61,087 bases of DNA from Candidatus Woesearchaeota archaeon (GTDB lineage Archaea; Nanobdellota; Nanobdellia; Woesearchaeales; WJIZ01): contig JAAOYF010000027.1 of the NCBI GenBank assembly GCA_018221205.1, forward strand, positions 1 to 61,087, given 5' to 3'. The notes under the pieces are model-generated. The model saw nothing but the letters and a program-made list of their open reading frames with translations. It made no database searches and had not been told where the DNA came from. The stretch's first letter is position 1. Every line of letters begins with the position of its first letter. Below are positions 12,741-55,820 of the stretch, piece after piece. The position numbers and the translations under genes were made by a program.

Positions 12741-13850
12741 ATGTGGCCATTTAAGAAAAAACCCAAGGCACCTGTCCCTGGAGAAGAGCCAGGAGGTGCA
12801 GTTGACGAGGATAGCGAAGAAAAGGGATTCCAGATTCCAGAAGATGCTACGTTAGCCCAGAAGATCAATCTTATCGGTGTTGAATTGACCAAAGTCAATG
12901 CGACACTTGAAAGTTTTAAGGAAACGAGAAAGAGCACTACTGAACGATTTTCTTTGATGAATGAACAGGTCGGAGAGATCCGGGGCCAGCTGATGGATAC
13001 GAACAAGACCATCGGCCAAATAGAGGTAAAGGCCACTAAAGCGACTGATCTTGTTGAATCTGTACAGCCGGATAAGATGATGATATCTCTGCAGCGTACA
13101 GATGGCAAGATCGAGGGTGTCAGGGCACAGCTGGAAGCGAAAGATGCGATGATGAAGAATATCATGGAACAGCTGAAAGGCATGAGAAGCCAGATGTCCT
13201 TGTTCAAAGGTGTAGAGCAGATCATCAAGCTTAATGAAGATGTGAAAGATGAGATCATGAATGCCAAAAAGACCGTTGCTATGGTCGAGCGGCATGCTGA
13301 CAAAGTCGAGAATGTCTTTATTGAATCCCAGAAAAGCTTTGAGGAATTCAACAGATTTGCGAGTACACTTGAAAGTATCAGAGCAGACATCAAGGATCTG
13401 CAGACCAAAACAGAGAAGACTGAAGTGAAGACCGGCACGTTCTTGATCAAGAAGGAATTCGAGAAGAAGTTCGATAAGATGGAGCAGGATCATAAGCAGA
13501 CCATGGATCTTGTGAAGAAGCTGCAGAAGCTTGAGAAGAATCTTACGACTGAGTTTGAGGAGGCTAAAGGTGAGATCAAAGGGAAGTTTGATCATGCCAT
13601 CGAGAAAGCTGAGATGATGAGTAAAGCGTTTGAGACGATTCTTGTAGAAAATCCTATGTTCGCCAAAGGCCTTGACCTCGAGAAGTATCTTGAAAAGCAC
13701 CTTTCTGGAGAAGAAAAGCCTGCGCCTAAGAAAGAGGAGAAAGAAGAGAAAAAAGAGGGCGAAGAAGGAGAGGAGAAAGAAGAAGGCGAGGCTGAGGAAG
13801 GCGAAGAGAAAGAAGAAGATAAAGAAGATTCTGAAGAGAAGAAAGAGTGA
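12741..13850 (+). CDS. Coiled-coil protein with acidic E/K-rich C-terminal tail
   Basis: 369-aa ORF with long heptad-like helical segments and a terminal EEKEEKKEGEEGEEKEEGEAEEGEEKEEDKED tail. The antisense ORFs are shadows. Confidence 0.5.
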   Translation: MWPFKKKPKAPVPGEEPGGAVDEDSEEKGFQIPEDATLAQKINLIGVELTKVNATLESFKETRKSTTERFSLMNEQVGEIRGQLMDTNKTIGQIEVKATKATDLVESVQPDKMMISLQRTDGKIEGVRAQLEAKDAMMKNIMEQLKGMRSQMSLFKGVEQIIKLNEDVKDEIMNAKKTVAMVERHADKVENVFIESQKSFEEFNRFASTLESIRADIKDLQTKTEKTEVKTGTFLIKKEFEKKFDKMEQDHKQTMDLVKKLQKLEKNLTTEFEEAKGEIKGKFDHAIEKAEMMSKAFETILVENPMFAKGLDLEKYLEKHLSGEEKPAPKKEEKEEKKEGEEGEEKEEGEAEEGEEKEEDKEDSEEKKE

Positions 13851-19620: not shown

Positions 19621-19678
19621 TACTTACATTATGAGTATGATATTATCTTTTTTGTAATCATACTTACATAATGAGTAT
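19621..19678. repeat. 40-nt-period direct repeat duplicating the start-codon region of the tandem-HTH gene
   Basis: tacttacatTatgagtat (19621..19638) and tacttacatAatgagtat (19661..19678) match at 17 of 18 positions. The second copy contains the real ATG (19671). The first ATG (19630) opens only MSMILSFL followed by a stop. Confidence 0.7.
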
Positions 19679-20868: not shown

Positions 20869-20905
20869 AGAAACATTTAAATAAAGCATATCTCAATTTT
20901 AGGAC

Positions 20906-35652: not shown

Positions 35653-35766
35653 TTATCCCGGACTAATGTCCAATTTCTTCTCTAATTCAGCAATAGCCAG
35701 TGTTGTCTTGATAATGGTGTCGGGGTTGAGGGACATGGTCTGGATGCCGCATTGGACAACGACAAG
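35653..35766 (-). pseudogene. Diverged duplicate of the last ~36 codons of ppsA (orphan 3' fragment)
   Basis: Hand translation gives LVVVQCGIQTMSLNPDTIIKTTLAIAELEKKLDISPG then a stop. The ppsA C-terminus reads EFVVQCGIGSMSLNPDTVIKTTLSVAKLEQKLGISPE then a stop. An in-frame TAG lies immediately upstream. Many synonymous differences occur at the nucleotide level. Confidence 0.8.
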
Positions 35767-41869: not shown

Positions 41870-43075
41870 ATGAGAGTATTGATGTTTGGGTGGGAATTTC
41901 CGCCAATGAGTTCTGGAGGTTTGGGTACGGCTTGCTATGGACTCACCAAAGGATTGAGCCAGCACGGTATTGGAGTTACCTTTGTCATGCCTTATGTCTC
42001 TGAAGGTGTAGATGCTGAATTTGTCAAGCTGTTGCCTGCCAATACAGCCCAGAAGATTAAGATGGTTGGTGTGGATAGCCCTCTTCATGCTTATATCACC
42101 TCAAGCGAATATCAGGAATTTCTGCTGACCTATAAGAAAACGGGTAAGCAGAACAAGCTCTATGGGCATAATCTGTTTGAGGAAGTGTATAGATTTTCTA
42201 TGAAAGCTGCGCTCATAGCTCAGCATGAGCAGTTTGATGTCATTCACTGCCATGATTGGATGACCTATGAGGCAGGCATCAGAGCACGGGAAGCCTCTGG
42301 AAAGCCTATGGTGATCCATGTCCATGCCACTGATTTTGACCGTACTGGTGGAAATGTCAATCAATTGGTGTATGACATCGAAAAAAGAGGGATGCATGCT
42401 GCTGATATGATCATCGCAGTTTCGCAATTCACCAAGAACAAGATTGTTGAGCATTATGGCATCAATCCTGATAAAGTCACGGTTGTACACAATGCGGTGA
42501 CGCAGGAGGAGAAACCTCGTTTCCATATCAATAAACATGATAAGATTGTGCTGTTTTTGGGAAGGATAACCCTGCAGAAAGGTCCGGACTACTTCATCGA
42601 AGCAGCGCGAAAGTGCCTTGAATTCGACCCAAACATCAGATTCGTCATTGCTGGAACAGGGGATATGGAAGGCCAGATTATACAAAGGGCAGCAGAATAC
42701 GGCATCGGCGACAAAGTCCTTTTTGCCGGATTTGTCAAGGATGAAGATCTTGATAGGATGTACCAGCTGGCAGATGTGTATGTGATGCCTTCTGTCTCAG
42801 AACCTTTTGGCATCACTCCTCTGGAAGCGATGAAAAATGGCACACCCTGCATCATCTCGAAACAGAGTGGAGTCTCGGAAGTCATCACCCATTGCCTTAA
42901 AGTTGATTTTTGGGACATCAATCAGCTTGTCGATAAGATTCTCAGTGTATTGAAACATGAGGAATTACATCATGCTCTCAAGGAACACGGTGCTCTAGAG
43001 ATCAAGAATTTCACCTGGCGGGAGCCAGCAGGGAAATGCGTTGACGTTTATAAAAAAGCGATAGCAGGGGGCTAA
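41870..43075 (+). CDS. GT4/GT5 glycosyltransferase, archaeal glycogen-synthase-like
   Basis: 401-aa ORF. The N-terminal MRVLMFGWEFPPMSSGGLGTACYGL and the E-x7-E motif EPFGITPLEAM fit GT-B retaining transferases. The glycogen gene context supports the assignment. Confidence 0.65.
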   Translation: MRVLMFGWEFPPMSSGGLGTACYGLTKGLSQHGIGVTFVMPYVSEGVDAEFVKLLPANTAQKIKMVGVDSPLHAYITSSEYQEFLLTYKKTGKQNKLYGHNLFEEVYRFSMKAALIAQHEQFDVIHCHDWMTYEAGIRAREASGKPMVIHVHATDFDRTGGNVNQLVYDIEKRGMHAADMIIAVSQFTKNKIVEHYGINPDKVTVVHNAVTQEEKPRFHINKHDKIVLFLGRITLQKGPDYFIEAARKCLEFDPNIRFVIAGTGDMEGQIIQRAAEYGIGDKVLFAGFVKDEDLDRMYQLADVYVMPSVSEPFGITPLEAMKNGTPCIISKQSGVSEVITHCLKVDFWDINQLVDKILSVLKHEELHHALKEHGALEIKNFTWREPAGKCVDVYKKAIAGG

Positions 43076-43078
43076 GAA

Positions 43079-43328
43079 ATGGTAAGTGTATGCTTGAGGT
43101 CTTTCAAAGACCTCGGAGAAGAGCACAAGGAGGAACTCCTCAAAAATCGGAGTTCCCCAAGGCAAAGAGGGACAACAACATGGTAAGTGTATGCTTTGAG
43201 ATTTTTGCAAAAAATCTCGTAAAAAGCGTGGGTTTCGCTTTTGTAGGCAAAGCCTACAAACCTTTGAGCATAGCTCAAAGTTCGCTCAAGCCCACGATTA
43301 GGGGGATAACATGGTAAGTGTATGCTTT
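43079..43328. repeat. Elements B1/B2: triplicated start-codon segment ATGGTAAGTGTATGCTT separated by 84-nt and 114-nt hairpin inserts
   Basis: Copies lie at 43079..43095, 43180..43196 and 43311..43327; the third is the GH57 start. B1 contains the hairpin GAGGTCTTT-C-AAAGACCTC. B2 contains GAGATTTTT-GCA-AAAAATCTC, GTAGGC-AAA-GCCTAC and CTTTGAGC-ATA-GCTCAAAG, all nested inside CGTGGG...CCCACG. Confidence 0.9.
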
Positions 43329-44501
43329 TATTTTCAAGTGCATCAGCCGTACAGAATCAGAAATTATTCAGTCTTTGATATCGGCAATAACAATCAGTAT
43401 TGGTTTAATGATAAAAATAAACAGATCATGGAGAAGGTCGCGAAGAAATGCTATATTCCTACCAATAAAGTCTTCCTGAATCATCTGCGGAATAATCCAG
43501 AGTTCAAGATCAGCTATTCTTTTTCAGGGGTTGTCCTTGACCAATTTGAGGAGTATGCTCCTGATGTCCTTCGGAGCTTCCAAGATCTTGTCGATACTGG
43601 CCAGGTCGAGGTGCTTGATGAAACTTATTACCACAGCCTGGCTTATCTCTATTCAAAAGATGAGTTCAAAGCACAGGTAAAACTTCATAATAAGAAGGTG
43701 AAGGACCTCTTCGGCTACAGCCCGTCTGTCTTCAGAAACACAGAACTGGTCTATAACAATGAACTTGCTAAATTTGTTGAAGATATGGGCTATAAAGGAA
43801 TCCTGGCAGAAGGTGCAGACCACATCCTCGGATGGAGAAGCCCTAATTTCCTCTATCGACCTGTGACGTGCAATAATATCAAGCTGCTGCTGAAGAATTA
43901 TAAGCTCTCAGATGACATCGCATTCAGATTCTCGAACAAAGGATGGAATGAGCATCCATTGACTGCACCAAAATTTGCAAAATGGGTGAACCAGACAAAC
44001 GGGAACGGGAACGTCGTCAACCTGTTCATGGATTACGAGACTTTCGGCGAGCACCAATGGGAAGACACCGGCATATTCAAGTTTCTAGAAGCGATGCCCC
44101 ATGAACTGCTCAAGCACCCAGACAATAAGTTCATCACGCCGAGCGAAGCTGTCAAGAGCTTCGAGCCTGTAAGTGACCTAGACATCCATAACATCATCTC
44201 ATGGGCAGACATCGAACGAGATCTGAGCGCATGGCTCGGCAACAGCATGCAGCAATCAGCAGCAACAAAGATCTACCAAATCGAGAAAAGAGTAAAGGAA
44301 CTGAACGATCCGAAGCTATTGGAAGACTGGCGAAAATTGCAGACGAGCGACCATTTCTATTATATGTGCACGAAGTGGTTTGCAGACGGTGATGTGCATC
44401 GGTATTTCAATCCCTATGAAAGCCCTTATGACGGCTTCATCGCATTCATGAACATCCTGAATGATATGCACAAAAGAATAGCACCACCAATTCCAGCATA
44501 A
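43311..44501 (+). CDS. Glycoside hydrolase family 57 protein
   Basis: 396-aa ORF. The N-terminal FYFQVHQPYRIR and MDYETFGEHQWE segments are typical of GH57 alpha-glucan-active enzymes. Confidence 0.75.
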   Translation: MVSVCFYFQVHQPYRIRNYSVFDIGNNNQYWFNDKNKQIMEKVAKKCYIPTNKVFLNHLRNNPEFKISYSFSGVVLDQFEEYAPDVLRSFQDLVDTGQVEVLDETYYHSLAYLYSKDEFKAQVKLHNKKVKDLFGYSPSVFRNTELVYNNELAKFVEDMGYKGILAEGADHILGWRSPNFLYRPVTCNNIKLLLKNYKLSDDIAFRFSNKGWNEHPLTAPKFAKWVNQTNGNGNVVNLFMDYETFGEHQWEDTGIFKFLEAMPHELLKHPDNKFITPSEAVKSFEPVSDLDIHNIISWADIERDLSAWLGNSMQQSAATKIYQIEKRVKELNDPKLLEDWRKLQTSDHFYYMCTKWFADGDVHRYFNPYESPYDGFIAFMNILNDMHKRIAPPIPA

Positions 44502-44812
44502 TGGCACCACGACTGACTCCGGAATATGCAGAGCACCTTTTAGCGACAGCACCATCTGACAAGAATTTCCATATCTTCAACGGACCTATGGTACACTGCA
44601 TCGAGGAACTGCATCAAGCATTGCGGCAGATATCTGAAGAGCAGTTCAAGCACCATAAGAACAACAGCAAGAATGATTTCTATAACTGGATATTATTGGT
44701 TGTGGGAGATATTAAATTAGCGAATGACATTGCCCGTGCCAAGACGAAACAGACCATGCTCAAAAGAATAGATGAGAGGATATCCTATCTGAAAAGCAAG
44801 GTGAATAGATGA
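44501..44812 (+). CDS. Small conserved protein, N-D-F-x-N-W motif family (paralog a)
   Basis: 103-aa ORF: FHIFNGPMVHCIEELHQALRQISEEQFKHHKNNSKNDFYNWI. It parallels the next ORF. Confidence 0.5.
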   Translation: MAPRLTPEYAEHLLATAPSDKNFHIFNGPMVHCIEELHQALRQISEEQFKHHKNNSKNDFYNWILLVVGDIKLANDIARAKTKQTMLKRIDERISYLKSKVNR

Positions 44813-45282
44813 AACATTATACCTTCAACCGGGATGCAGGAGAGAACAGTTTTTGGTTAGCCAGTGGAGAGGAGCTTTCTACCATCAAGGACCTGTATCA
44901 TGAACTCGCACATATGAGTGATGATACTTTCAATACTCATGTCAACGCAGGCAAGAATGACTTTGCTAACTGGGTAGACCATGTCTTTGAAGAGCATACT
45001 CTATCATCTAAACTCGTGCAGGCATCGACTAGAGATGAGATGAAGACCGCATTAGGAAGCTGGATGCATGATATCATCCATGAATCGAGCAATATCCGCC
45101 ATGCCTATAAGAAGACCATGCATCATGCGAAAACCATGGGAGAGAAAGTTAAGGAGCACTCACAGAAGCATGTCTCCTGGATCTTTTCGAAGGATCATCC
45201 ATTGAGAAAAGGCATGCTTGATTTTTTACTGGGATTTTTCATAGGGGCTTTATCAGTCTTCTTTATCTTCAATGCTCTCTAA
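44809..45282 (+). CDS. N-D-F-x-N-W motif family protein (paralog b) with C-terminal TM helix
   Basis: 157-aa ORF: FWLASGEELSTIKDLYHELAHMSDDTFNTHVNAGKNDFANWV. C-terminal hydrophobic helix LLGFFIGALSVFFIF. Confidence 0.5.
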   Translation: MKHYTFNRDAGENSFWLASGEELSTIKDLYHELAHMSDDTFNTHVNAGKNDFANWVDHVFEEHTLSSKLVQASTRDEMKTALGSWMHDIIHESSNIRHAYKKTMHHAKTMGEKVKEHSQKHVSWIFSKDHPLRKGMLDFLLGFFIGALSVFFIFNAL

Positions 45283-46013
45283 TCATCCGGAGAAAACTTT
45301 AATTTAATTACTTGAATGAGCTTGTTCATAAAGTCCTTGATACTCTTGAATGTCTTCTTTATCTTGCCTATCACTTTCCTCATGATTTTTCCAGGGAATT
45401 TCAGTATGACTACTATCTTTTTCAGCACTTTCATGCTGATATCAAGACTTTTGCTCCATATCTTGGACAGCACGACCTTTGCTTTTTCCCAGAAAATGAT
45501 GAGTTTTTTCTTCAATGCGCGATTAGGAGCATTCAGCCTATGAAGAACAGGCCAGATATGCTGCTGGTAGTAGAGTCTTGAAGGATGGAGCTTGCCAGCT
45601 ACCTTGAACGTGAATCTTTGGTAGGATCTTTTTGATTTTTTAGCGAGCTCAAAACCCGTACCCCTTTTGAACTGTTCGCTCTTTTTCCCGGTGAACGATT
45701 TTGTCCTTTTGAATATGAACTTCAGCCTGTTCAGGGTAGATACAAAGGGCCTGAGGAACTTTTTCATCCCTCTCTTGCCTCTTTCCTTCTGCTTCTCTTT
45801 CCTGACCTTTTTAGCGAGCATACTCTCATATCTTTTTCTTAATGCAAGGGAATCCTCCAGGAATCTCTTCTCATGTCTCTTCATCAGCAGCCTTCTCTCA
45901 TGAGCAGACAGCTTCTGGTCTTCGGTAAGAAGAGAGTCCATCTTCTTCAGATAATGCTTCACCATCTCTTCTTTGTTCTCTTCAAACCACAGGTTTATCT
46001 CTGACTCTTCCAT
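45279..46013 (-). CDS. Highly basic K/R-rich hypothetical protein
   Basis: 244-aa ORF and last gene of the RHH-RHH-ATPase operon. Confidence 0.45.
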   Translation of the reverse strand: MEESEINLWFEENKEEMVKHYLKKMDSLLTEDQKLSAHERRLLMKRHEKRFLEDSLALRKRYESMLAKKVRKEKQKERGKRGMKKFLRPFVSTLNRLKFIFKRTKSFTGKKSEQFKRGTGFELAKKSKRSYQRFTFKVAGKLHPSRLYYQQHIWPVLHRLNAPNRALKKKLIIFWEKAKVVLSKIWSKSLDISMKVLKKIVVILKFPGKIMRKVIGKIKKTFKSIKDFMNKLIQVIKLKFSPDD

Positions 46014-46014
46014 C

Positions 46015-46440
46015 TTATTCTAGGCGTTCCCTCAATCCTTTACAGGCAGAAAAAACCGTCTGCTTCAATTCCTTGGGAAGAAGCCTATAGCGCTGCATGA
46101 TCTCATGATAGTTGTCCTTAGCAGGCTTCTTCTCATTGTTCCTCAGATGCTCAAAACATTCTTTGATCAGGACATTTATACGGTCAAAATCAGATCCTTT
46201 AGAGAGGTCATCTATCTCATTCTTGATATCCTTCAGGAGATGTTTTGCACGCTTGATGTCATGCTCTTCCTGGGTGAGTGATGCAGTCTTTATCTTTGAA
46301 GGTATATCCAATACCATCAGCTCTGCTATGGCAGTATCTTTCCCTTCTTTTCTCAGCACGGACACAGACTGCTGCAATTCCTGAAATTTATCCTTAAGTT
46401 CGTCGATCTTCTCTTCTATCTCCTCTTTTTTTATCCTCAT
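46015..46440 (-). CDS. Helical/coiled-coil hypothetical protein
   Basis: 141-aa ORF. Its start overlaps the stop of the 1287-aa ORF. Confidence 0.45.
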   Translation of the reverse strand: MRIKKEEIEEKIDELKDKFQELQQSVSVLRKEGKDTAIAELMVLDIPSKIKTASLTQEEHDIKRAKHLLKDIKNEIDDLSKGSDFDRINVLIKECFEHLRNNEKKPAKDNYHEIMQRYRLLPKELKQTVFSACKGLRERLE

Positions 46441-49400
46441 TTCTTAACCTCCTTCTTCTCCCCTTTCGGAGGGTTTTTCGTAAGCTCAATAGCCCCTTCT
46501 AATTTTTTCACTACCTTATCCTTCTTCTCAACCTGGTCTTTTGGCAATGCAATATTCTTGACCTCCATCATCAGATCATTGATGGTTAGCCAGTCTTTAT
46601 AGGGGAGCAAGTTCTCAATCTGCTTGCCCAACTGAGTTATGCTCTCGAGATTCGCCTCGATCTGTTCCTTACTTAGCTTCGTTTCCTCTTTCTTCTCTTC
46701 TTTTCTTGATTCGACCTCTTTCTTCTTCACTTCTTTTTCCTTATCAGCTGCCTTTTCGTGCTCTTTTCGTGCTGCTTCCAATTCTTTTTCCATAGCCTCG
46801 ACATCGACGAGCTTTCTCTGCAGTTTCTGAGGCTTCTTACCTATCTTGTTCCAGAGTTTCTCAACCCTCGGCGTCAATCCATCCAGGTAGATCTGGACCA
46901 TGTTGAAATTGCCTGATTTGATCTTGTCCTGGGCAAGCTTCAGCTCTAATTTCAGGTCGAACACATCCTGGCTTTCCTTCTCGAGCTGCTCGAACTGGAA
47001 TGCGAGATCGTCGACAATATCATTGAATTTATTGTATTTCTCAAGCTCCTCATCACTCAATCTGACGACAGAATGGAGGATAGGACGGAATGTCACGTAG
47101 TAAGGCCTTCCACGATTCCATGCAGAGCTCTGCACCATGCCGCTGCCAACAGGCGCTTTGATCAATGCCTGGATGAACTCTTCACCATAGTTGGTCTTGA
47201 TCCTGTTCAAATCGCCCTCATCTCGAGTCTTCATCTGGACGTTGGTGTTGATGTTGGCTTTGATCTGGCCGACGAAATCCTGCAATACCTGTGAGATCAG
47301 CAAAATACCGATACCCCACTTCCTGAACTCTCGGCACCCACGTTCAATCTGGATAAAGCCCTGTCCAGAGCCGCCAAATTTCGGCAAGATCCTATGGATC
47401 TCATCGTAGACGAGCATATATCTCAATCCCCGATACTCCTGCAGATTAGAGTGGAAGATCTCTCTGATGGTATTCGCGACAAAAATATCATAGTCCTTTG
47501 GATCTAATGTGGAGGTGGTGAAGACCTGTATCTCTCCAGGACGCCAATTCTTGTAGATGGCGACAATCTCTCTACTATCCTTGATTGCACGAATATTACC
47601 TGGGAAGGCTCTCGCGTCTTTAGGTTTCATACCCATCGCAGGATAGAAGCTGAGCATCTTCTTATCAGTGCATTTTCTCAGCATGCCTGACCATTGGGCA
47701 GTCGGATCGAATACGACGATAGCTGCACCCTTTATCAATACCTCTTCTATTATCACCTGTGCTGCAATAGATTTTCCTCCTCCTGTCGATCCTGCGACGA
47801 TGGAATGGACGGTTAAGATGTCCATATCAAAATATGCGTTCTTGGTCGTCTCTGCTATCTTGCCAACAAACAAGCTGCGGGGCCCTTCTTTCGGCAACTC
47901 TTTATAATCGACTTTCGCATGGAACCTCTTCCGTTTCTCCATCTCCCTCTTTATGATGAGGTAGGTGATGAATCCCAGCAGGAGAAGGGCCACGATGAGT
48001 GCAAGGACCCATACAGGCAGCCATCCAAAGATCCGATATTGATGATAAGGATAGACGACACTAAACAAGGTATCTGTCGAAGAGGAGATGCCTAGATATT
48101 CTGCTTCAACTCCGAGGAGATAATCTCCAGTCTCGAAGTCTTTCGGTATCTTATACGAGCGTATGAGGGAAGCGAAGGTCTCGATGTTCAGACCATGCTC
48201 TCCTATCGGGGTCTTATTGGTCTTGTTGAGATCAGAGATGAAGAAACTTAGGTTGACATTGTATTTCCTTCCGATCAGCAGGTTGATCAGATCCAATTCA
48301 TATTTGAAATCATAGCCGATGAATGCATTTTTCTTCAACGGCCGGAGATCCATCAATAATGTCCTTACCGGAATGTCGATGTCTTCTGTTATGATGAGAT
48401 AGACAGGTATGTTGTAATCATAATCTCCCCTTATGCGGATATTGCCTAAGTATTTTCCTTCGTCTTGGTTCCCTAGCAGGCGCACGTTCACTTCTTTAGA
48501 AGAATTTGCAGGAATGAGCAGCTCTGTGTCGCTCAATTGAATGGAAGGAGCGACATTTCCTTCTACACCGAGCCTTAATCTTATCGGTACTTTCCTGAAA
48601 TTGAAGATGGTGAACTGCTCGTCCACGTAGTTTCCTCTCTGTATCTTCTTGATGATCTCGTTGATGGAGATGAATACTTCTAGAGGAGAGGGTTTTTGCA
48701 CATCTATGGGGAAGGCGGATTCGTCTGTCCTTGTCCTTGTCCTTGTCTGAGTCTCTTCCTCTGGCTTGGGCTGAACTTGCACCTGCTCAGGTATCTCTCC
48801 AAGCGGAATAGTGATGTTCACTGTACCGCCCTCTACTAATTCAGTTATCCCAGTCAGGTTCCCAATGTAAGGGAAATATCCATCCTTAATGCCGATAATC
48901 AAATAGTAGGCTGAAGCAGGAAGGTTCAGCGTAAAGCCACCATTAGTGTCTGAGTAGGTAAGGTAGCCTCCGATAGCCACTGTAGCGTTTGATATCCTTG
49001 TCAGAGTATCCTCATCGAAGACATATCCATTCACTGTCCCATTCAGATCTGCTTCGATGGGAATCGGGATTAATGATAGGTTCAGCTCTTTTTCTTCATA
49101 GATATCGATGCTGATATCTTTTGAGTAGGGGAAATATCCTGTCTTCACTGCGACAGCGGTCCTGTTGCCGCTCTGCATAGGGAAACTGAATCTTCCACTT
49201 GCATTCGTGATACCGACGCCGCCACCAGCTGAGACTGTCGCATTCGGGATGGCGCAGGCTGCGATGGAGAAGTTTGCGATGCAGGCGCTTGTGTTCTGGA
49301 AGACATATCCTCTTAATATTGCATTGAAATCAAACTTCCCGAGGAAATCAGGGACCATGGAGATATTGTATTGGATTATCTCTCCGACTTCGGCCTCTAC

Positions 49401-50300
49401 CAGACCGTAGAAGTCCAAGAATCCAGGATGACTTGCTTTCAAGATATGTCGGTCTACATCTACAAGTATCAAGTAGTAGCCAGATGCATTTGTGTTGGTC
49501 GTAAGACCAGAAATATTGATTATTGTATTGTTCAATGGAGAGCCATCTCTTATATCAGTCACATACCCGTCGATGAAACTCTTCTCCTGGATGGAGCAGT
49601 TGCTCAAAGGATCAGATATAGGATCAGGGAAGAAATAATAGGTGATATTGTCAGAAGATTCTGGAATGGGCAGCATCATTTCATAATTATAGTAGGAATT
49701 GTCAAAGCCTTGCTTAAATTCTTCTGCTTGGACTGCAAAGAAGATGTTTCCGGCAGAATCCTGCAATGCACCCATCAACCAGCTCACTGCTTCTGGGAAG
49801 AGATCAATCGCAGGAGCAGTGATATTCAATCCTCCTAGGATTACATTGATGGTCTCTGTGAAACTCATATTCGCGGAATACACTGCTTGTGAACTGACTT
49901 CCATGAATGCGTCTATCGCAGAGAGATTTGCAGCAGATGCACCTGAGGAAAAATCCAATTGCGATTGATTCAGGGTGCTGGCATATATATCTAATCCGGT
50001 TGTACCATGACAATTGAAGAAGAGATCGTACCTATTTAGGTCGCCGGCCGCCGAAGTATAGGGCCAATAATCATTATTATTCGACGGACTGAGGATAGCG
50101 ATACCATAATAGCCAGTCCACCAGTTCATCTCTACTGGCCCGACTATCTGCACTTCATAGATATAGCCGGCTGTTCCGTTGACTGCCCAGCCGAAGTAGC
50201 CGACATAATCTTTGACATAAGTGAGAGTGATGAGAGCAAGGACTAGAGAGATGATTATTATGAACAGATACAAATACTTGTATTGTCTCTTATGTATCAC
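46437..50300 (-). CDS. Giant single-pass membrane protein: extracellular W-x-G-Y-Y-G-like and CarboxypepD_reg-like repeats, TM helix, cytoplasmic HerA/FtsK-like (DUF87) P-loop ATPase, coiled-coil tail
   Basis: 1287-aa ORF with a GTG start overlapping the RHH-1 stop (GTGA) and an N-terminal signal anchor. MNWWTGYYG...GLDIYAST resembles the secreted family. Three G-Y-V-x-D...N-A-S-G-x-F-like repeats follow. TM helix IFGWLPVWVLALIVALLLLGFITYLII. Walker A HSIVAGSTGGGKS, VVFDPT, Walker B MLVYDEIH, and LLISQV. The tail is K/E-rich. Confidence 0.75.
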   Translation of the reverse strand: MIHKRQYKYLYLFIIIISLVLALITLTYVKDYVGYFGWAVNGTAGYIYEVQIVGPVEMNWWTGYYGIAILSPSNNNDYWPYTSAAGDLNRYDLFFNCHGTTGLDIYASTLNQSQLDFSSGASAANLSAIDAFMEVSSQAVYSANMSFTETINVILGGLNITAPAIDLFPEAVSWLMGALQDSAGNIFFAVQAEEFKQGFDNSYYNYEMMLPIPESSDNITYYFFPDPISDPLSNCSIQEKSFIDGYVTDIRDGSPLNNTIINISGLTTNTNASGYYLILVDVDRHILKASHPGFLDFYGLVEAEVGEIIQYNISMVPDFLGKFDFNAILRGYVFQNTSACIANFSIAACAIPNATVSAGGGVGITNASGRFSFPMQSGNRTAVAVKTGYFPYSKDISIDIYEEKELNLSLIPIPIEADLNGTVNGYVFDEDTLTRISNATVAIGGYLTYSDTNGGFTLNLPASAYYLIIGIKDGYFPYIGNLTGITELVEGGTVNITIPLGEIPEQVQVQPKPEEETQTRTRTRTDESAFPIDVQKPSPLEVFISINEIIKKIQRGNYVDEQFTIFNFRKVPIRLRLGVEGNVAPSIQLSDTELLIPANSSKEVNVRLLGNQDEGKYLGNIRIRGDYDYNIPVYLIITEDIDIPVRTLLMDLRPLKKNAFIGYDFKYELDLINLLIGRKYNVNLSFFISDLNKTNKTPIGEHGLNIETFASLIRSYKIPKDFETGDYLLGVEAEYLGISSSTDTLFSVVYPYHQYRIFGWLPVWVLALIVALLLLGFITYLIIKREMEKRKRFHAKVDYKELPKEGPRSLFVGKIAETTKNAYFDMDILTVHSIVAGSTGGGKSIAAQVIIEEVLIKGAAIVVFDPTAQWSGMLRKCTDKKMLSFYPAMGMKPKDARAFPGNIRAIKDSREIVAIYKNWRPGEIQVFTTSTLDPKDYDIFVANTIREIFHSNLQEYRGLRYMLVYDEIHRILPKFGGSGQGFIQIERGCREFRKWGIGILLISQVLQDFVGQIKANINTNVQMKTRDEGDLNRIKTNYGEEFIQALIKAPVGSGMVQSSAWNRGRPYYVTFRPILHSVVRLSDEELEKYNKFNDIVDDLAFQFEQLEKESQDVFDLKLELKLAQDKIKSGNFNMVQIYLDGLTPRVEKLWNKIGKKPQKLQRKLVDVEAMEKELEAARKEHEKAADKEKEVKKKEVESRKEEKKEETKLSKEQIEANLESITQLGKQIENLLPYKDWLTINDLMMEVKNIALPKDQVEKKDKVVKKLEGAIELTKNPPKGEKKEVKK

Positions 50301-50431
50301 TCTGCGTCCATCCTCCTTTTGATTAGGTACTCAAAACCGTGAGATCTGTTTGCGAATGTTTTATCATCAATCTTCTTATCTATCCAATCAACTAAATCTT
50401 TGTCTATTGTTATGGTGATGCGCTCTTTCAT
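50297..50431 (-). CDS. Ribbon-helix-helix (CopG/Arc-like) micro-protein RHH-1
   Basis: Not in the track. Hand translation gives MKERITITIDKDLVDWIDKKIDDKTFANRSHGFEYLIKRRMDAE. The beta-strand ITITID plus the RSH..EYL helix pattern fits an RHH fold. Confidence 0.6.
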   Translation of the reverse strand: MKERITITIDKDLVDWIDKKIDDKTFANRSHGFEYLIKRRMDAE

Positions 50432-50562
50432 TCTTGGTCTATCTTCCTTTTCACTAAATATTCAAAAGCATGAGATCTGTTCGCGAATGTCTTGTCAGTT
50501 ACTTTCTTATCTAGCCATCTGAGAAGTTCTTTGTCTATTGTTATGGTGATGCGCTCTTTCAA
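50428..50562 (-). CDS. Ribbon-helix-helix micro-protein RHH-2 (TTG start)
   Basis: Not in the track. Hand translation gives (M)KERITITIDKELLRWLDKKVTDKTFANRSHAFEYLVKRKIDQE, a tandem paralog of RHH-1. There is no in-frame ATG upstream. It has an ATGA overlap with RHH-1. Confidence 0.5.
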   Translation of the reverse strand: MKERITITIDKELLRWLDKKVTDKTFANRSHAFEYLVKRKIDQE

Positions 50563-50672
50563 TAGAGAACTATCATACTGAGTAATATATAAAGGTTTCT
50601 GTTAAGTAGATTAGTATAGAAAAAAGTATATTTATTAACGAAAAATATTATGTTCGCATACTGAGTAATACT

Positions 50673-53600
50673 TTACTTTTGGAGCATCTCAAAGACTTCG
50701 CTACACACCCTGCTCACTTTCACTTTCCACGATTTCGGCAGTTGAGCATATAATTCCTGGATGTCGTTGTAGATCGATTTCGCCTGTTTCTTGTCACTCT
50801 TAATGACATTCAACACATCCTTGACCTTTTTCTTTATCCTATGGACAAGCAGTTCGTTATAGATAGAAGAGATCTTTTCGATGACTTTCTTCCTGAGATC
50901 AGATCCTAATCTGTCATTGTAGATCTTGATCATATCATGATAGGTGTCTTCAGCATTGTCCAGTCTCTCTTCAGCTATCTCACCTGAAGCCCGCTTGAGC
51001 AGCATATGGAGCTCGTGAAGATCCTTATTGATCATCTTCTTCACTTGATGGATCGGATTGATCTTATTGATGAAATCGTATTTCCTTATCTTGAGGAGTA
51101 TCTCAAATTCATAAAATACATAGACGACCAGCAGCAGCAGGATGAGGGCGATCTGGATAGCCAGCAAAGGATTCTCAAAACCAGTAAAGGTGGAGAATAC
51201 TGCAAACCCACTGATACCCAGGCCTTTTTTCGGCTCAGCAAATGGGTCTATGAGGACAGGCACGATCTTTTTCGTGTCTTCACTCTCTACTCTTTTCTTA
51301 AGATAATAGATGATGTTCTTGATCTTGCCTGGCTCAAACAATACCAAAGGATCTGACTCGAGAATCTGATGGGGTGTCAAGAATTCAATCTCTGAGGTAT
51401 CTTTTGCCAGGTCTTTAGGAATCGACTCTATGATATGCATATTCTCGTTGGAGTTCTTGATATCGAAATCTGTCTTTATCAGGGTGATCTCTTCTGTCTC
51501 TCCAGAGAGCATCGTCAGCTCGATATTCTTCACTGTCTTTATGATGAGCATATCTTTCTGGATATCTTCGTTGGCGCCTATCACTTCCTTGTCTTCTTTC
51601 TTCATCACTTCAGCATATCTTTTCAAGGTCTCTTCAATCTCTTTCTCTTCGGGATAGGCAGAATATTCTTCAGTGGCAAGGACCTTTAGGCCAATGATGG
51701 TGTTCTGTTCGATCTCATCTACACTCGCTATGATATCAAGCCTTCTCTGATCTTTTTCATCCTCTTCCTTGAAATACTGCAGGCCGTCAAGGTCGCGAGG
51801 GATCCTCAACAGGTTTGTCTTCTTTTCCTGGAGCTGCCCTTCTATTCCAAGATCAATCGCTGCATCAAGCTCAGATTTGCCAAGATTGCTCATGGTATAG
51901 ATCGCGTCTGATAGCGCATCAACCAATAGGGTGACTCTTTCAAGAAGACTCCCTGATTCAAGCACTTCAGCAACAGGGACAGGCACCTCTTCTTCGACAG
52001 TCTCCAAGGGGTCTGCTGCTATTATCTTAAGGGTAGTTGAGTTCAGATAGTATGTCTTTGCCAGATCCTTTGTCACTTCTAATTTTTCGGATTCAGACTC
52101 GTAGTTTTCCATCATGACCAACACTTGGTGGTTTCCGTCCAGCACGACATAAGAGACCGTGCCTTCTGCATTCGTGATTTTCTTGTCTCCTTCGACAAAG
52201 ACTTTTGCGCCTGCCAGCAATTTATTCGAGATGTCCTTGACGATGATATCGAGATTGTACTGCTCCTTCACCTTTATCCTTATGGTGCTAGATGCTACAT
52301 TGCCTACAGAGTCCTTTACCTGCACAGCCACATCGTAGTTCCTCACTCCATTGAAGGTGTGCTTCGGATTCTGCTCGGTGGAGGTCGTCTCGTCATCGAA
52401 ATCCCATTTATAGGTTATTCCACCTATGCCGCCAGAGGGATGGGACTCAAACGTCACCGCGATGCCTGAACTTATTTCGGTATCATCAGCGACAATAGAG
52501 ACCGTAAAGGTATTTCCTACTTCGAACGTCTTCTCGATCACTTGGGAGCCATGCTCAAAGATCATCACTGCTTCGATCTTATAGGAACCAGGCCTTTTCA
52601 GGAAGTCTATCACATCAGTCACCGGGAAATTCTGATTGCTGTAGGACCTGAACAGGGTCTCTCCGTTAGGCTGTGTTATGAGGACAGTGACTTCTGCTCC
52701 GAAGGGAGCGGTGATGATGTAATAGCCCTGTTGGTTGATGCTGAACGTGTCAGCATTGAGCTCCAGGCCGAAATCCTGCTCGAGGTCGATGATGAATCTC
52801 CTTTCTTCAGACTCTCTCATATTTCCGGCAAGATCAGTACAGGCCACTTTCCATGTATGATTGCCGCTCTCAAGGTCTGTCAGTGTGATCTCTTCACTCT
52901 CTCCAGAGCTGACTACGAGGTCCTGCTTCTTCTGGCCGTCTATGAAAAGAGAGCAGTCGAATTGAGGAGCAAGATTATCTACAGGGAGGAAATCTAAGGT
53001 GAGGGTGCTCATGAACGTGAAAAAATTGTCTTCAAGACCTAAGGTGATGGAAGGAGCAGTGTAGTCCATGATGATCGGAAGAGGAGATGACTGCAGCTGG
53101 TCAGCTTCATCATCTGCGCAGTCAAGCACGAATGATCGTGAGCCTTCAGCCAAGTCAAGAGTAGTTGAGAGCGTCTCAGTCTCGACAGAGCCAAAGACCT
53201 GGAGGATGATACTGTTGTCCAGCAAGAGCGAACAGTCTACTGATGTCCCTGTTGTGTGGAAGACAAAATAATCCAGATCAAGACTCTGTTGGCTATCATA
53301 GTAGGTACCGGCATCTGGAGTGAGACTGAAAATGTCCATGCTGCCTGTGCCATGGAAAATCCTCAACGTGATAGGGGTCCCTTCCGGATCTATCTGCTCC
53401 TGGAAATTTGCCTGCAGGGAAGCAGTGCCGCTGTAGCTAATTTCGGCTTTCGGATTATCTAAATCAAAGGAAATGTCAGCGTAGATGACCTGGGCAGAAA
53501 CTTCATTGTTCTTTGTCGCACCCAGCTTTCCTTCATTCAGGCTGAAGTCGTCATCCCAGTTGTCTGCAGCAGGCTCTTTTTCTACTAATGCGCAACATTG

Positions 53601-53831
53601 TGCGCTGCCATAGCAGGTCTTCTGCATTGAGGAAGACTCATAAGAGTAGACTGCCCATTGGGTGCAGAGCTTTGATTCATCAACCTGCCAATCGAATGAA
53701 CTGGCGCTGACACTGAATGTCTTCAATGCGTTGTTGCCTGTAGGGATCTCGGTGAGGGAGATGTCGATACTAAGGGCAAGGACAAGGGTGCTCAGCAGGA
53801 TCACTGTTGCGAGATAATGGAGCTTTTTCAT
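50673..53831 (-). CDS. Giant secreted surface protein with PKD domain, C-terminal TM helix and cytoplasmic helical tail
   Basis: Start trimmed to MKKLHYLATVILLSTLVLALS (ATGA overlap with the 90-aa RHH gene). PKD-like ITYKWDFDDETTSTEQNPKHTFNGVRNYDVAVQVKDSVGN. TM helix LLAIQIALILLLLVVYVFYEF. About 140 aa are cytoplasmic. Confidence 0.7.
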   Translation of the reverse strand: MKKLHYLATVILLSTLVLALSIDISLTEIPTGNNALKTFSVSASSFDWQVDESKLCTQWAVYSYESSSMQKTCYGSAQCCALVEKEPAADNWDDDFSLNEGKLGATKNNEVSAQVIYADISFDLDNPKAEISYSGTASLQANFQEQIDPEGTPITLRIFHGTGSMDIFSLTPDAGTYYDSQQSLDLDYFVFHTTGTSVDCSLLLDNSIILQVFGSVETETLSTTLDLAEGSRSFVLDCADDEADQLQSSPLPIIMDYTAPSITLGLEDNFFTFMSTLTLDFLPVDNLAPQFDCSLFIDGQKKQDLVVSSGESEEITLTDLESGNHTWKVACTDLAGNMRESEERRFIIDLEQDFGLELNADTFSINQQGYYIITAPFGAEVTVLITQPNGETLFRSYSNQNFPVTDVIDFLKRPGSYKIEAVMIFEHGSQVIEKTFEVGNTFTVSIVADDTEISSGIAVTFESHPSGGIGGITYKWDFDDETTSTEQNPKHTFNGVRNYDVAVQVKDSVGNVASSTIRIKVKEQYNLDIIVKDISNKLLAGAKVFVEGDKKITNAEGTVSYVVLDGNHQVLVMMENYESESEKLEVTKDLAKTYYLNSTTLKIIAADPLETVEEEVPVPVAEVLESGSLLERVTLLVDALSDAIYTMSNLGKSELDAAIDLGIEGQLQEKKTNLLRIPRDLDGLQYFKEEDEKDQRRLDIIASVDEIEQNTIIGLKVLATEEYSAYPEEKEIEETLKRYAEVMKKEDKEVIGANEDIQKDMLIIKTVKNIELTMLSGETEEITLIKTDFDIKNSNENMHIIESIPKDLAKDTSEIEFLTPHQILESDPLVLFEPGKIKNIIYYLKKRVESEDTKKIVPVLIDPFAEPKKGLGISGFAVFSTFTGFENPLLAIQIALILLLLVVYVFYEFEILLKIRKYDFINKINPIHQVKKMINKDLHELHMLLKRASGEIAEERLDNAEDTYHDMIKIYNDRLGSDLRKKVIEKISSIYNELLVHRIKKKVKDVLNVIKSDKKQAKSIYNDIQELYAQLPKSWKVKVSRVCSEVFEMLQK

Positions 53832-54100
53832 TTCTCCACCTCTATCATCTCTTTTATCCTTTTGAGCTCTTGCAGCAGAAGTTCCTCTTTTGAGAGCTTG
53901 GATTTTTCCTTTACAACTTCTTTGATATCTTCTCTCAGTTTTTTCACTTGGTAGGTTGTAGGGTCTTTCCATTCCAGCCAACGCTTTCTTACAATGCTTC
54001 TCACTGTTTCTGATACATCAAGAAAATGATCTTTCTGGACAATCTCTTTGAGGTTTTTAGCTAATGAAGAAGGAACCCTTATAGAGACTATTGCATTCAT
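53828..54100 (-). CDS. Ribbon-helix-helix protein with coiled-coil extension
   Basis: 90-aa ORF. MNAIVSIRVPSSLAKNLKEIV...VSETVRSIVRKRW fits an RHH N-domain. Confidence 0.55.
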   Translation of the reverse strand: MNAIVSIRVPSSLAKNLKEIVQKDHFLDVSETVRSIVRKRWLEWKDPTTYQVKKLREDIKEVVKEKSKLSKEELLLQELKRIKEMIEVEK

Positions 54101-54240
54101 TTCGACCCCATGTAGTCACGGATGAAATCTCGAATAGCTTCTGATCTTGACCCATAGATCTCCCTCTTCACCAAAGAATCAAGCCATTTTATGATATCAT
54201 CAGGCAGGCGCACGTTTAGGATGTTTATTTTTTGCGGCAT
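54097..54240 (-). CDS. Ribbon-helix-helix CopG-family micro-protein
   Basis: Not in the track. Hand translation gives MPQKINILNVRLPDDIIKWLDSLVKREIYGSRSEAIRDFIRDYMGSK, a classic CopG pattern (SRSEAIR). It has an ATGA overlap with the next gene. Confidence 0.65.
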   Translation of the reverse strand: MPQKINILNVRLPDDIIKWLDSLVKREIYGSRSEAIRDFIRDYMGSK

Positions 54241-54962: not shown

Positions 54963-55083
54963 TTATTCTAATTGCACGTAGAAGTAATACTCGAGCATTT
55001 TCAAATCCTCGGCAAAGAGTACCACATCTTCATTACATTCGGAGTGGCACAGACAAATCACTTATTCTAACTGCACGTAGAAG
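54963..55083. repeat. Element D: 22-nt direct repeat (21/22) duplicating a gene 3' end, flanking a 77-nt insert
   Basis: ttattctaaTtgcacgtagaag (54963..54984) and ttattctaaCtgcacgtagaag (55062..55083). The second copy is the reverse complement of ...FYVQLE-stop. The insert shares the 16-nt CAAATCCTCGGCAAAG with element C. Confidence 0.85.
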
Positions 55084-55820
55084 AAGTAGTCAGTAGGAGT
55101 GTCATCTCCTAAACGTCCATTCTCTGCAACGATCATCTGGAAATTCCAGATATTACCATCAAAACCGACTATGCCATCAGGCTGGATGATCGAAGTATAG
55201 ATAGGGATGTTGGCAGTGAGGTCATATAATATCAGCTCCTGATATGTGTCTTTAGAGCTTTGGTTTGAGCTATTATATAGATAGGCTGTCGGGCAGGTCT
55301 GATTGATACGGGTGGTACCGATATAGAAATCATCATAATCGGCTGTGAGATTGAACGTCTCGTTGATACCGTCTGATGCTGTTGCTGGGATATCTAATGA
55401 TGATTCATATGCTGATATATCAAGATAGAGCCCGCCTGTCCTGGTGAAATTATAGCATTCTATATTACCGTCTGAGAAGTCTACCTCAGATGTTGAAGCA
55501 TAGATCTGGCCTGAAGGATTAGAGGTCTGCCAGTCATAGAGGGTGTATCCACTAGAGTCTCCTAACTGGATCTTTCCGGTGACGTTTCCATAATAACCCT
55601 GCCATGTCTTTGTTGTGGTCCAGGCATAGATATTCAACTGGCTCACATTACCTGCAATCGCTGACAAAGTGTCAGAAGCAGTGGACGGCCTTCTTGTGGA
55701 GTCCACTATGGTCAGGTTCTTTGCACCCTCTGGAAGATTCACTGATAGCGCTGATAGGCTCTGGATTATCAAGAGGATTAGGAGAATGATTCCAAGCCTG
55801 TTTATCATCTTCTTTTTCAT
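55062..55820 (-). CDS. Secreted W-x-G-Y-Y-G-N-V-T-G family protein, paralog 4
   Basis: 252-aa ORF with a signal peptide. Core motif TWQGYYGNVTGKIQLGDSSGYTLYDWQTSNPSGQIYAST. C-terminal motifs WNFQMIVAE and YFFYVQLE followed by the stop. It is closest to paralog 1. Confidence 0.75.
   Translation of the reverse strand: MKKKMINRLGIILLILLIIQSLSALSVNLPEGAKNLTIVDSTRRPSTASDTLSAIAGNVSQLNIYAWTTTKTWQGYYGNVTGKIQLGDSSGYTLYDWQTSNPSGQIYASTSEVDFSDGNIECYNFTRTGGLYLDISAYESSLDIPATASDGINETFNLTADYDDFYIGTTRINQTCPTAYLYNSSNQSSKDTYQELILYDLTANIPIYTSIIQPDGIVGFDGNIWNFQMIVAENGRLGDDTPTDYFFYVQLE

Follow-up and report, generated by a model that had tools for sequence, protein, structure and literature searches.

We analysed a stretch of DNA of 61,087 nucleotides (nt) from Candidatus Woesearchaeota archaeon (contig JAAOYF010000027.1, assembly GCA_018221205.1), referred to here as the window. 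Its minus strand carries a gene cluster built around a protein of 1287 amino acids (aa), in which a large extracellular region is joined by a transmembrane (TM) helix to a cytoplasmic ATPase related to HerA and FtsK; we call this protein the fusion. The cluster encodes a conserved, multi-component system that is almost certainly active. Its bearers are nearly all DPANN archaea, an abundant group that is for the most part uncultured, relies on other cells as far as is known, and has a little-characterised surface apparatus. The genes and control region of the cluster are listed below, together with the evidence for each; open reading frame (ORF) checks, profile matches and orthologs were used.

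54097..54240, minus strand: RHH47, a 47-aa ribbon-helix-helix (RHH) protein, first gene of the conserved operon (Pfam RHH_1).
53828..54100, minus strand: RHH90, 90 aa, with an RHH-like N-terminus and a helical C-terminus, overlapping RHH47 by 4 nt.
50673..53831, minus strand: surface partner, about 1052 aa when translated from the ATG of MKKLHY (Pfam; hidden Markov model (HMM) of the TAIL module described below).
50563..50672, minus strand: predicted internal promoter/operator region, with a TATA-like TTTATATA and two copies of TATTACTCAGTATG.
50428..50562, minus strand: RHH-A, 44 aa, TTG start (ORF check, RHH-like matches).
50297..50431, minus strand: RHH-B, 44 aa, ATG start (ORF check, RHH-like matches).
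46437..50300, minus strand: the fusion, 1287 aa, GTG start (ORF check, Pfam, structural models).
46015..46440, minus strand: 141-aa cytoplasmic helical protein with a TAIL module at its end (ORF check, orthologs).
45279..46013, minus strand: 244-aa K/R-rich protein, last gene of the operon (ORF check).

RHH-A, RHH-B, the fusion gene and the 141-aa ORF are joined by 4-nt ATGA/GTGA start/stop overlaps, and a 1-nt gap separates the 141-aa ORF from the 244-aa ORF. An earlier sequence-only reading of this DNA had described an operon of two RHH genes, the fusion gene and the two small genes. All five ORFs were recovered, but they are not the full operon: RHH47, RHH90 and the partner gene precede them and are likewise chained by ATGA overlaps, which moves the operon start about 3.7 kb further upstream. 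The predicted transcription unit therefore runs from RHH47 through RHH90, the partner, RHH-A, RHH-B, the fusion and the 141-aa gene to the 244-aa gene and reaches position 54240. The two small genes do belong to the operon as had been proposed, though not as incidental members, since both are conserved positional partners.

Our comparisons are based on 82 loci, namely the window and 81 fetched loci, which hold 89 fusion genes in total. The parts of the window fusion are given below from N- to C-terminus.

aa 6-33 (50202..50285, minus strand): signal anchor/TM helix (hydropathy; AlphaFold helix at aa 4-37).
aa 34-239 (49584..50201, minus strand): N-terminal ectodomain of the ‘W-x-G-Y-Y-G’ type, found in 71 of the 89 fusion genes.
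aa 240-502 (48795..49583, minus strand): three beta-sandwich repeats of the CarboxypepD_reg type (Pfam, AlphaFold).
aa 541-750 (48051..48680, minus strand): two membrane-proximal Ig/CARDB-like beta-sandwiches (AlphaFold).
aa 755-786 (47943..48038, minus strand): TM helix (hydropathy, AlphaFold).
aa 787-1083 (47052..47942, minus strand): HerA-clade RecA-like ATPase (Pfam, profiles, structural model, Foldseek).
aa 1084-1287 (46440..47051, minus strand): conserved helical domain followed by a K/E-rich long-helix tail (AlphaFold, alignment).

Hydropathy analysis detects hydrophobic segments at aa 6-33 and aa 755-786. The first bears out the proposed N-terminal signal anchor, which AlphaFold also models as a helix (aa 4-37), and the second lies where a single TM helix had been placed (near residues 760-785); it is followed by a K/R-rich juxtamembrane stretch, KREMEKRKRFHAK. 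The fusion contains 25 N-X-S/T sequons, all of them before aa 760 (within aa 34-754), whereas 7.0 +/- 2.4 are expected in the ectodomain from composition and 25 were reached in 0 of 2000 shuffles. There are none in the last 500 aa. The same bias holds across the family, with a density per 100 aa of 4.1 sequons outside and 0.29 inside (137 representatives). The TM, charge and sequon patterns fit a protein whose middle is extracellular and N-glycosylated and whose C-terminal part is cytoplasmic. The fusion is accordingly a membrane glycoprotein of hairpin topology: a short cytoplasmic N-terminus, a TM helix, the ectodomain, a second TM helix, the ATPase and a helical tail.

Four lines of evidence agree that the cytoplasmic part contains a complete P-loop NTPase of the HerA/FtsK type, as had been predicted: Pfam, a profile search of PDB sequences, a confident structural model and Foldseek. 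The Pfam DUF87/HerA central domain matches at aa 812-913 (E 1.3e-10, 42.2 bits against a cut-off of 23.2). The motifs HSIVAGSTGGGKS, VVFDPTAQW, MLVYDEIHR and LLISQVLQDF are all found; they include the Walker A motif GSTGGGKS and the Walker B motif VYDEIH, and the family loop HRILPKFGGSG and the REFRKWG...SQ segment are also present. An alignment of 94 sequences shows little or no variation in Walker A, Walker B (DE), the REFRKWG segment and the SQ sensor. The AlphaFold model of aa 786-1287 built from this alignment is of high confidence, with a predicted local distance difference test score (pLDDT) of 93.7 and a predicted template modelling score (pTM) of 0.82. Its best Foldseek match is Sulfolobus solfataricus HerA (4d2i, E 3.6e-12), and the other top matches are Thermococcus HerA-NurA (9x1m) and anti-phage HerA complexes, with 8wiv and 8xau among them. 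Ranks 1-16 are all HerA; the TcpA coupling protein, FtsK and VirB4 rank lower, while the Foldseek probability is 1.00 to HerA, FtsK, VirB4 and TcpA alike. A search of PDB sequences with the family profile gave the same order: HerA at 1.3e-12 to 2.3e-8, FtsK at 3.5e-3 and TrwB at 5e-2, with VirB4 not within E 0.1.

The hallmarks of the FtsK-HerA superfamily (Walker A, Walker B, an arginine-finger/sensor region and the RecA-like ASCE fold) are thus all present, and profiles and model together place the ATPase in this superfamily, apparently nearest to HerA rather than to FtsK, VirB4 or VirD4. The HAS-barrel of HerA is absent from the model, which has only two short strands (a beta-hairpin, residues 24-40 of the modelled fragment) before the P-loop; the TM helix lies about 25 residues upstream. 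Against the curated HerA, CedD, TraC and TraD models, the scores fall short of the cut-offs by one to two orders of magnitude. Because of the missing HAS-barrel and these low scores, we regard the ATPase as a distinct HerA-clade family outside those named. The K/E-rich C-terminal coiled coil expected from the sequence is likewise seen in the model, as helices with pLDDT above 90 in aa 1084-1287.

Most family members retain the catalytic residues: Walker B reads DE in 196 of 210 and DG in 12 of 210. The catalytic glutamate is lost in the DG proteins (for example P0004, P0007 and P0008). At locus L002, a DG protein is encoded two genes downstream of a DE paralog, an arrangement that recalls mixed catalytic/non-catalytic rings.

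In the ectodomain, two conserved Ig-like domains lie next to the membrane, and the part distal to them is variable. An AlphaFold model of aa 1-800 is of moderate confidence (pLDDT 70.9) and shows, in order, the helix at aa 4-37, the N-terminal domain, three beta-sandwiches at aa 240-502, a disordered linker, two sandwiches at aa 541-750 and the TM helix. Within the N-terminal domain, aa 28-105 are poorly modelled. The three sandwiches and a Pfam CarboxypepD_reg match (E 2e-16) confirm the carboxypeptidase-regulatory-like repeats that the sequence-only reading had counted; repeat number differs among homologs. The membrane-proximal sandwiches are modelled at pLDDT of about 85-90 and occur in 87 of 89 fusions. 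Foldseek searches with the ectodomain returned generic tandem Ig/beta-sandwich proteins only (TM-scores of about 0.1-0.4), including the biofilm scaffold RbmA, the S-layer protein SbsB and macroglobulins, and these matches are uninformative on ligand. The description of the region as adhesin-like holds insofar as it is a sequon-rich surface domain of tandem beta-sandwiches; the adhesin label as such does not, since the structure search found nothing more specific, and ‘glycosylated beta-sandwich surface domain’ is what remains of it.

The W-x-G-Y-Y-G assignment of the N-terminal domain was upheld. This domain is collinear with a secreted 252-aa ORF of the window (55062..55820), even though the pairwise match is weak (22% identity, E 0.02), and the same ORF matches fusion genes of 10 other loci (BLASTP E < 1e-6). 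Four secreted W-x-G-Y-Y-G paralogs of 250-300 aa are encoded in the window, at 17802-18662, 18646-19545 and 20092-20868 on the plus strand and at 55062-55820 on the minus strand. The secreted family has no Pfam or NCBIfam match. Two of the paralogs adjoin a small helix-turn-helix (HTH) gene of one family, at 19671-20174 (plus strand) and 55817-56278 (minus strand) (clusters 10 and 13).

It had been a concern that the fusion might be a chimeric or frameshifted ORF. This is rejected, as full-length homologs with the same order of parts occur in independent assemblies, and an ATPase fusion is present at all 82 loci. These homologs are 36-45% identical to the window protein over the whole alignment and 39-46% in BLASTP local alignments. 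The ATPase domain as query retrieved 297 proteins of 43-90% identity from Woese-, Pace-, Nano-, Micr-, Aenigm- and Altiarchaeota bins, and an exhaustive HMMER scan found 363 cluster representatives below 1e-30. The suggested survey of related genomes for the same fusion was also productive: when one genome was scanned for each GTDB species, at least 548 stretches were confirmed, nearly all of them DPANN. In the best 150 representatives listed, proteins of about 450 to 6253 aa have the ATPase at their C-terminus, the exceptions being fragments that begin inside the domain, and it is C-terminal likewise in 82 of 82 loci. Of 137 representatives, 118 have a TM helix immediately ahead of the ATPase, and most homologs also have an N-terminal one.

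The ectodomains of the family span about 280 to more than 5300 aa, whereas ATPase identity keeps within 45-88%. Elsewhere they contain NEW3, LamG, CARDB, Kelch and PEGA domains, which are binding or structural folds, and no enzyme domains were found in those examined. At L002, the cluster is flanked by genes for surface proteins of 5949 and 7246 aa (1-2159 and 14533-20962) with peptidase S8, FG-GAP, LamG and CARDB domains, and so sits in an island of giant surface proteins. In Micrarchaeota, a ‘366-aa DUF853 protein’ (P0080) is only the last part of a 2019-aa ORF that runs without interruption (L083, 3042-9101), its recorded gene call being too short. At L082 (1-9200), a 3395-aa fusion is encoded two small genes upstream of a soluble 399-aa paralog.

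Of the best 79 loci from the species-level scan, nearly all come from metagenome-assembled genomes (MAGs) that bear a Woesearchaeota/Nanoarchaeota-type label or clearly belong to that type. Many third-party annotation (TPA) MAG records with the operon carry the title ‘uncultured Methanosarcinales archaeon’ (L006, L008, L010, L013-L017, L034 and others), and one operon-bearing record is titled ‘Candidatus Saccharibacteria’. These titles probably reflect taxonomic mislabels or mis-binned contigs.

The fusion gene (82 of 82 loci) is embedded in a recurrent gene order. Upstream lie RHH47 at position -3 (54/82), RHH90 at -2 (55/82) and, directly before the fusion, a surface partner of about 1000-1170 aa at -1 (70/82); downstream lie a cytoplasmic protein of about 250 aa at +1 (46/82) and a coiled-coil protein of about 368 aa (cluster 2), mostly at +2 (56/82). 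The partner has a signal/anchor, an ectodomain of PKD, Big_13 and CarboxypepD_reg domains (PKD_4 3.7e-11, Big_13 1.6e-7), a single TM helix close to its C-terminal end and, on the cytoplasmic side, a tail that carries two TAIL hairpins. TAIL is a helical-hairpin module of about 50 aa with the pattern A+..Y..I...Y..LP...K..V...C..L. Its HMM matches the C-terminus of the partner, whose tail is itself in the HMM seed. The 141-aa protein also ends in the module (…AKDNYHEIMQRYRLLPKELKQTVFSACKGLRERLE), so that TAIL is common to the partner, the 141-aa protein and the C-termini of homologous fusions; the window fusion, unlike its homologs, is without a terminal TAIL. Because soluble and membrane proteins alike bear it, we read TAIL as a putative docking module.

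Orthologs of the 141-aa protein (147-153 aa) are encoded downstream of the fusion gene or genes at L001, L002, L013, L017 and L021. The idea that the 141-aa ORF is a split-off C-terminus of the fusion was rejected, as these orthologs are separate genes downstream of fusions that retain their own TAIL. The TAIL/141-aa family has no significant match in Pfam or NCBIfam. A likeness to the DnaJ J-domain in PDB sequences (E of about 0.01) was treated as chance helical-hairpin similarity, given that the HPD motif is absent. The 244-aa protein has no family match in profile scans; its N-terminus resembles that of a 245-aa gene product encoded at the same position at L001 (E 2e-7). A further shared module, the DUF5752-like ‘NDFxxW’ domain, occurs in the fusion tail of 67 of the 89 homologs and in the +1 gene of 38 loci.

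The two upstream RHH genes differ in how firmly they are assigned. RHH47 matches Pfam RHH_1 with 33.1 bits (cut-off 20.5) and the NikR N-terminal RHH domain with E 1e-7, while RHH90 gives weak RHH_1 and CdrS matches. The tandem 44-aa paralogs noted in the sequence-only reading are present as two ORFs with the reported TTG start and overlaps, and are 75% identical to each other (E 1e-25), the first 30 nt of RHH-A equalling those of RHH-B apart from the start codon. Their assignment as RHH proteins is weaker: RHH_1 scores of 16-17 bits fall below the cut-off, although the pattern ‘RITITID...RSH..E’ fits and the NikR RHH domain matches at E 2e-7 to 3e-6. We rejected CdrS/aCcr1 as an identity for the RHH proteins, with scores far below cut-offs and weaker than the generic NikR RHH matches. 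Genes of the RHH-A/B type lie directly upstream of the fusion in only 4 of the 82 loci (two copies each in the window, L002 and L020, and one in L054). The double RHH prefix, for whose conservation a survey had been suggested, is therefore a rare local duplication and not a feature of the family.

In the 110-nt gap before RHH-A, the TATA-like TTTATATA lies at 50587..50594, about 30 nt from the TTG; this spacing points to a transcript with a short leader or none. The gap further contains two exact copies of TATTACTCAGTATG (50574..50587 and 50657..50670), 83 nt apart, the proximal of which abuts TTTATATA. The window has only these two matches to the repeat, where 0.36 would be expected, and two or more were obtained in 4 of 100 shuffles. 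In L002, a distant relative (38% identity in the full-length alignment, 40% in BLASTP local alignment), the near-identical CTTTATATATTACTGAGTATG occupies the corresponding position and a second repeat follows 85 nt further upstream (about 7620-7725), so that a TATA box and candidate operator motif appear to be kept between the two loci. RHH-A and RHH-B would probably act as repressors of their own leaderless sub-operon, their predicted binding site being the repeated TACTnAGTATG motif, which overlaps the TATA-proximal region.

In window-type loci L001, L010, L013 and L021, a second ATPase fusion of about 780 aa directly follows the giant one; a second paralog was sought in every frame of the window and none was found. 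These tandem paralogs are 62-100% identical in their ATPases as against about 27% in their ectodomains. The 3' modules are 100% identical over 1548 nt at L010 (5330-12267; ATPase 100%, ectodomain 27%), 97.7% over 1200 nt at L013 (4103-10520; ATPase 99%, ectodomain 26%) and 85% over 1131 nt at L001 (4523-10716; ATPase 89%, ectodomain 29%). The identity at L010 could be an assembly artefact. The gradient between motor modules and ectodomains argues for gene conversion of the motor module. It fits motors that co-assemble in one ring, and it also fits a constant 3' cassette that permits exchange of ectodomains.

Three further genes of the window may be associated with the system.

44501-44812 and 44809-45282, plus strand: two genes convergent with the operon, encoding proteins of 103 and 157 aa, with a DUF5752-like ‘NDFxxW’ domain.
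12741..13850, plus strand: 369-aa coiled-coil protein, homolog of the +2 gene, 33 kb away and possibly associated.

The 103-aa and 157-aa genes, whose Pfam DUF5752 match is weak, probably belong with the system. On the plus strand they close an operon that also encodes a GT4 glycosyltransferase (41870-43075) and a GH57 hydrolase (43311-44501). Genes of glycogen metabolism (debranching enzyme, glycogen synthase) recur beside the cluster in other genomes. The GDE_C debranching enzyme and SpoIIM genes that flank the cluster elsewhere are found in the window at 7343-9145 (plus strand) and 9131-9937 (minus strand). With the +2 coiled-coil, GDE_C and SpoIIM genes 33-40 kb away, the synteny of the window is broken or rearranged.

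The neighbours of the cluster in the window are housekeeping genes, among them those for phosphoenolpyruvate synthase, glycogen synthase, GH57, a DRG GTPase and glycogen debranching enzyme. Also set between housekeeping genes is a free-standing ORF of 344 aa (35682-36716, minus strand), which has a LAGLIDADG_3 homing-endonuclease domain. The window contains no tRNA or Rfam matches, and relatives of the fusion were absent from 2.9 million viral contigs. A mobile element or virus was rejected on these grounds together with the housekeeping neighbours; the locus is a chromosomal, DPANN-wide envelope gene cluster.

By analogy with its characterised relatives, we tentatively prefer the reading that the fusion may be a membrane-anchored HerA-type motor that threads a polymer, likely DNA, in a manner coupled to surface contact, with adaptors docked to it and RHH proteins providing autorepression. 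The ATPase domains would form a ring just beneath the membrane, as in every solved HerA/FtsK relative, and this ring would gather six ectodomain stalks and 6-12 TM helices about one axis. TAIL and DUF5752-like adaptors would dock the partner and regulators on the cytoplasmic face. The ring would then spend ATP on threading a polymer, with DNA the most probable one, wherever the ectodomains grip another cell or a surface; the outcome would be a device that couples DNA uptake or transfer to contact. According to general reports, DPANN cells lack nucleotide synthesis and rely on their hosts for nucleotides. DNA is favoured as the substrate because characterised HerA-clade motors (HerA-NurA, CedB/CedD) act on DNA. 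CedB/CedD, which are the only known membrane-tethered archaeal HerA-clade motors and come as paired paralogs, import DNA after cell contact (PMC11868833).

Several observations weigh against this proposal. The case for a DNA substrate comes solely from the activity of relatives. The sequence-only reading had called for a search for co-occurring membrane pores, and none emerged: no conserved polytopic protein, including a CedA/VirB6-like channel, lies within +/-10 kb of the 82 loci, and SpoIIM is present within that distance in only 6 loci. A conduit would consequently need to be made from single-pass helices. Profile scans of the operon found no nuclease, relaxase, pilin or DNA-binding domain, and the HAS-barrel of true HerA is missing. 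Near-universal syntenic conservation would suit a housekeeping role in the envelope or in division equally well. We consider doubtful the proposal in its boldest form, namely that the cluster encodes a previously unrecognised envelope machine in which a hexameric HerA motor is wired to six stalks, with a gene-converted motor cassette and exchangeable ectodomains of 0.3-5 thousand aa, by which DPANN archaea would take up host DNA or other polymers at contacts without a type IV secretion system, Ced channel or pilus.

Among the alternatives, an envelope scaffold survives best, as a possible though rather doubtful account. The fusion and its partner would here be major S-layer-like glycoproteins, and the HerA ring a hub for anchoring, assembly or remodelling that would connect hexameric surface units with coiled-coil and adaptor proteins in the cytoplasm, with no polymer crossing the membrane. 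The sequon-enriched tandem beta-sandwiches and the presence of S-layer SbsB and matrix scaffolds among the Foldseek matches agree with such a role, as do core syntenic conservation in at least 70 species, the co-encoded coiled-coil and TAIL adaptor proteins, and neighbourhoods of 82 loci in which channel and DNA-processing genes were not found. Many archaeal S-layer proteins have a single C-proximal TM anchor, and the fusion is anchored in this way too. Strong purifying selection on the catalytic motifs, however, would be unexpected for a passive anchor, and we know of no S-layer that needs a cytoplasmic ring ATPase. It is also hard to square a 20-fold range of ectodomain length with one lattice.

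Protein export or surface-protein handling, along the lines of type VII secretion, appears unlikely. TAIL-bearing small proteins would be its substrates or adaptors; helical proteins of 94-420 aa with a conserved C-terminal hairpin are indeed encoded right after the ATPase in most loci, next to a partner membrane protein with a large ectodomain, and many secreted W-x-G-Y-Y-G paralogs are encoded in the window. Yet the ATPase is of the HerA clade and not of the FtsK clade to which EssC/EccC belong, with one ATPase domain rather than three, and the small proteins have no WXG100 match. TAIL also ends integral membrane proteins, which suits a docking motif better than an export signal.

We find it still less probable that the fusion is an FtsK-like motor for chromosome segregation or division, with the RHH proteins as cell-cycle regulators resembling CdrS/aCcr1. 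A membrane-anchored ATPase of the DNA-pump type kept as a core gene would be expected of such a motor, and two RHH genes with weak CdrS/aCcr1 similarity do head the operon, while the coiled-coil protein conserved at +2 has an SMC-like composition. A division pump would not be expected to have large, fast-diverging glycosylated ectodomains or, at one locus, multiple paralogs that differ in their ectodomains, however, and ftsZ, sepF and min genes were not found in the neighbourhoods of the 82 loci. The CdrS/aCcr1 scores count against it as well, being far under cut-off and outscored by the NikR RHH matches. A HerA-based anti-virus defence system at the membrane is very improbable: the best PADLOC matches (mad8 1.9e-14, defence-type HerA 1.7e-13) are confined to the generic ATPase core, and the anti-phage HerA complexes among the top structural matches are set against an operon that has no effector (Sir2, DUF4297 or nuclease), seven other proteins with only weak, compositional-looking matches, and a core gene of fixed synteny among housekeeping neighbours instead of a variable island, with no patchy strain-level presence, defence-island association or linked effector seen.

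Whichever role applies, the fusion physically links the outside of the cell to an ATPase of the DNA-pump type in hundreds of species-level genomes. It offers a concrete candidate for DNA or nucleotide acquisition, or for envelope organisation, in DPANN archaea. Its evolutionary design is unusual in combining a constant motor, which is kept identical in tandem paralogs, with exchangeable ectodomains. The motifs FDPTAQW, HRLLPKFGGSG and REFRKWG provide a sequence signature for metagenome surveys.

The sequence-only reading could not match the fusion to a described system, and our searches agree. Full-text literature, in which most subscription journals were outside coverage, gave no account of the operon or of an extracellular domain joined to a HerA ATPase, and source databases apply generic labels to the family (DUF87, DUF853, ‘helicase HerA domain-containing’, ‘FtsK/SpoIIIE-like’). 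The nanohaloarchaeal SPEARE proteins are reportedly very large, variable DPANN surface proteins proposed to function in host contact; to our knowledge, they are without a C-terminal TM-HerA ATPase module. Anti-phage HerA systems (Sir2-HerA, DUF4297-HerA) and mad8 of MADS have an ATPase core similar to that of the fusion. These assemblies are soluble, always have a linked effector and are distributed in defence islands, whereas the fusion operon is without an effector. The likeness to type VII secretion (EssC/EccC, EsaA, WXG100) is conceptual only, in that a membrane ATPase, partners with large ectodomains and small helical proteins bearing C-terminal recognition motifs occur together. That system is bacterial, and its FtsK-clade ATPase carries three ATPase domains on a separate polypeptide, in contrast to the single domain of the fusion. 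Its small proteins have no sequence relationship with those of the window.

FtsK/SpoIIIE share with the fusion a membrane part followed by a C-terminal motor of the same superfamily, which in their case is a hexameric DNA pump. They span the membrane with four TM helices, are without a large ectodomain and carry a gamma winged helix-turn-helix domain, in place of which the fusion has an all-helical coiled coil at its C-terminus. The FtsK_SpoIIIE Pfam domain is not listed for the window fusion, and a homolog scored 21.2 against a cut-off of 24. CedB/CedD (PMC11868833) are likewise archaeal, with a HerA-clade C-terminal ATPase tethered by a TM helix, and likewise form paired paralogs. They differ in having an N-terminal TM helix, a cytoplasmic VirB4-like N-terminal domain and no ectodomain, while the fusion has no such domain between its TM helix and ATPase. 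They work with CedA/CedE (a VirB6-like channel) and the CedA1 pilin, none of which is present within +/-10 kb of the 82 loci. The CedD model gives the fusion 29.1 bits against a cut-off of 600, with the P-loop segment alone aligning.

HerA itself, known from HerA-NurA end resection (4d2i, 9x1m), is the best profile and structural match. The two have a common RecA-like core and the same order of motifs (Walker A, Walker B ‘DE.H..P’, ‘RE.RK.G’ and ‘SQ’), and a hexameric ring is expected of the fusion. Unlike HerA, the fusion is without a HAS-barrel, is anchored in the membrane and bears a large ectodomain, and no NurA, Mre11 or Rad50 was found in the operon proteins or among the clusters conserved in the 82 loci. 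It scores about 24-30 bits against NCBIfam HerA equivalog cut-offs of 800-970 and has the family-specific motif ‘FDPTAQW’ and loop ‘HRLLPKFGGSG’. As each comparison failed on at least one defining feature tested, sequence and model together suggest that the fusion is a membrane-anchored motor of the HerA/FtsK superfamily that stands outside HerA proper, Ced, FtsK/SpoIIIE, VirB4 and EssC.

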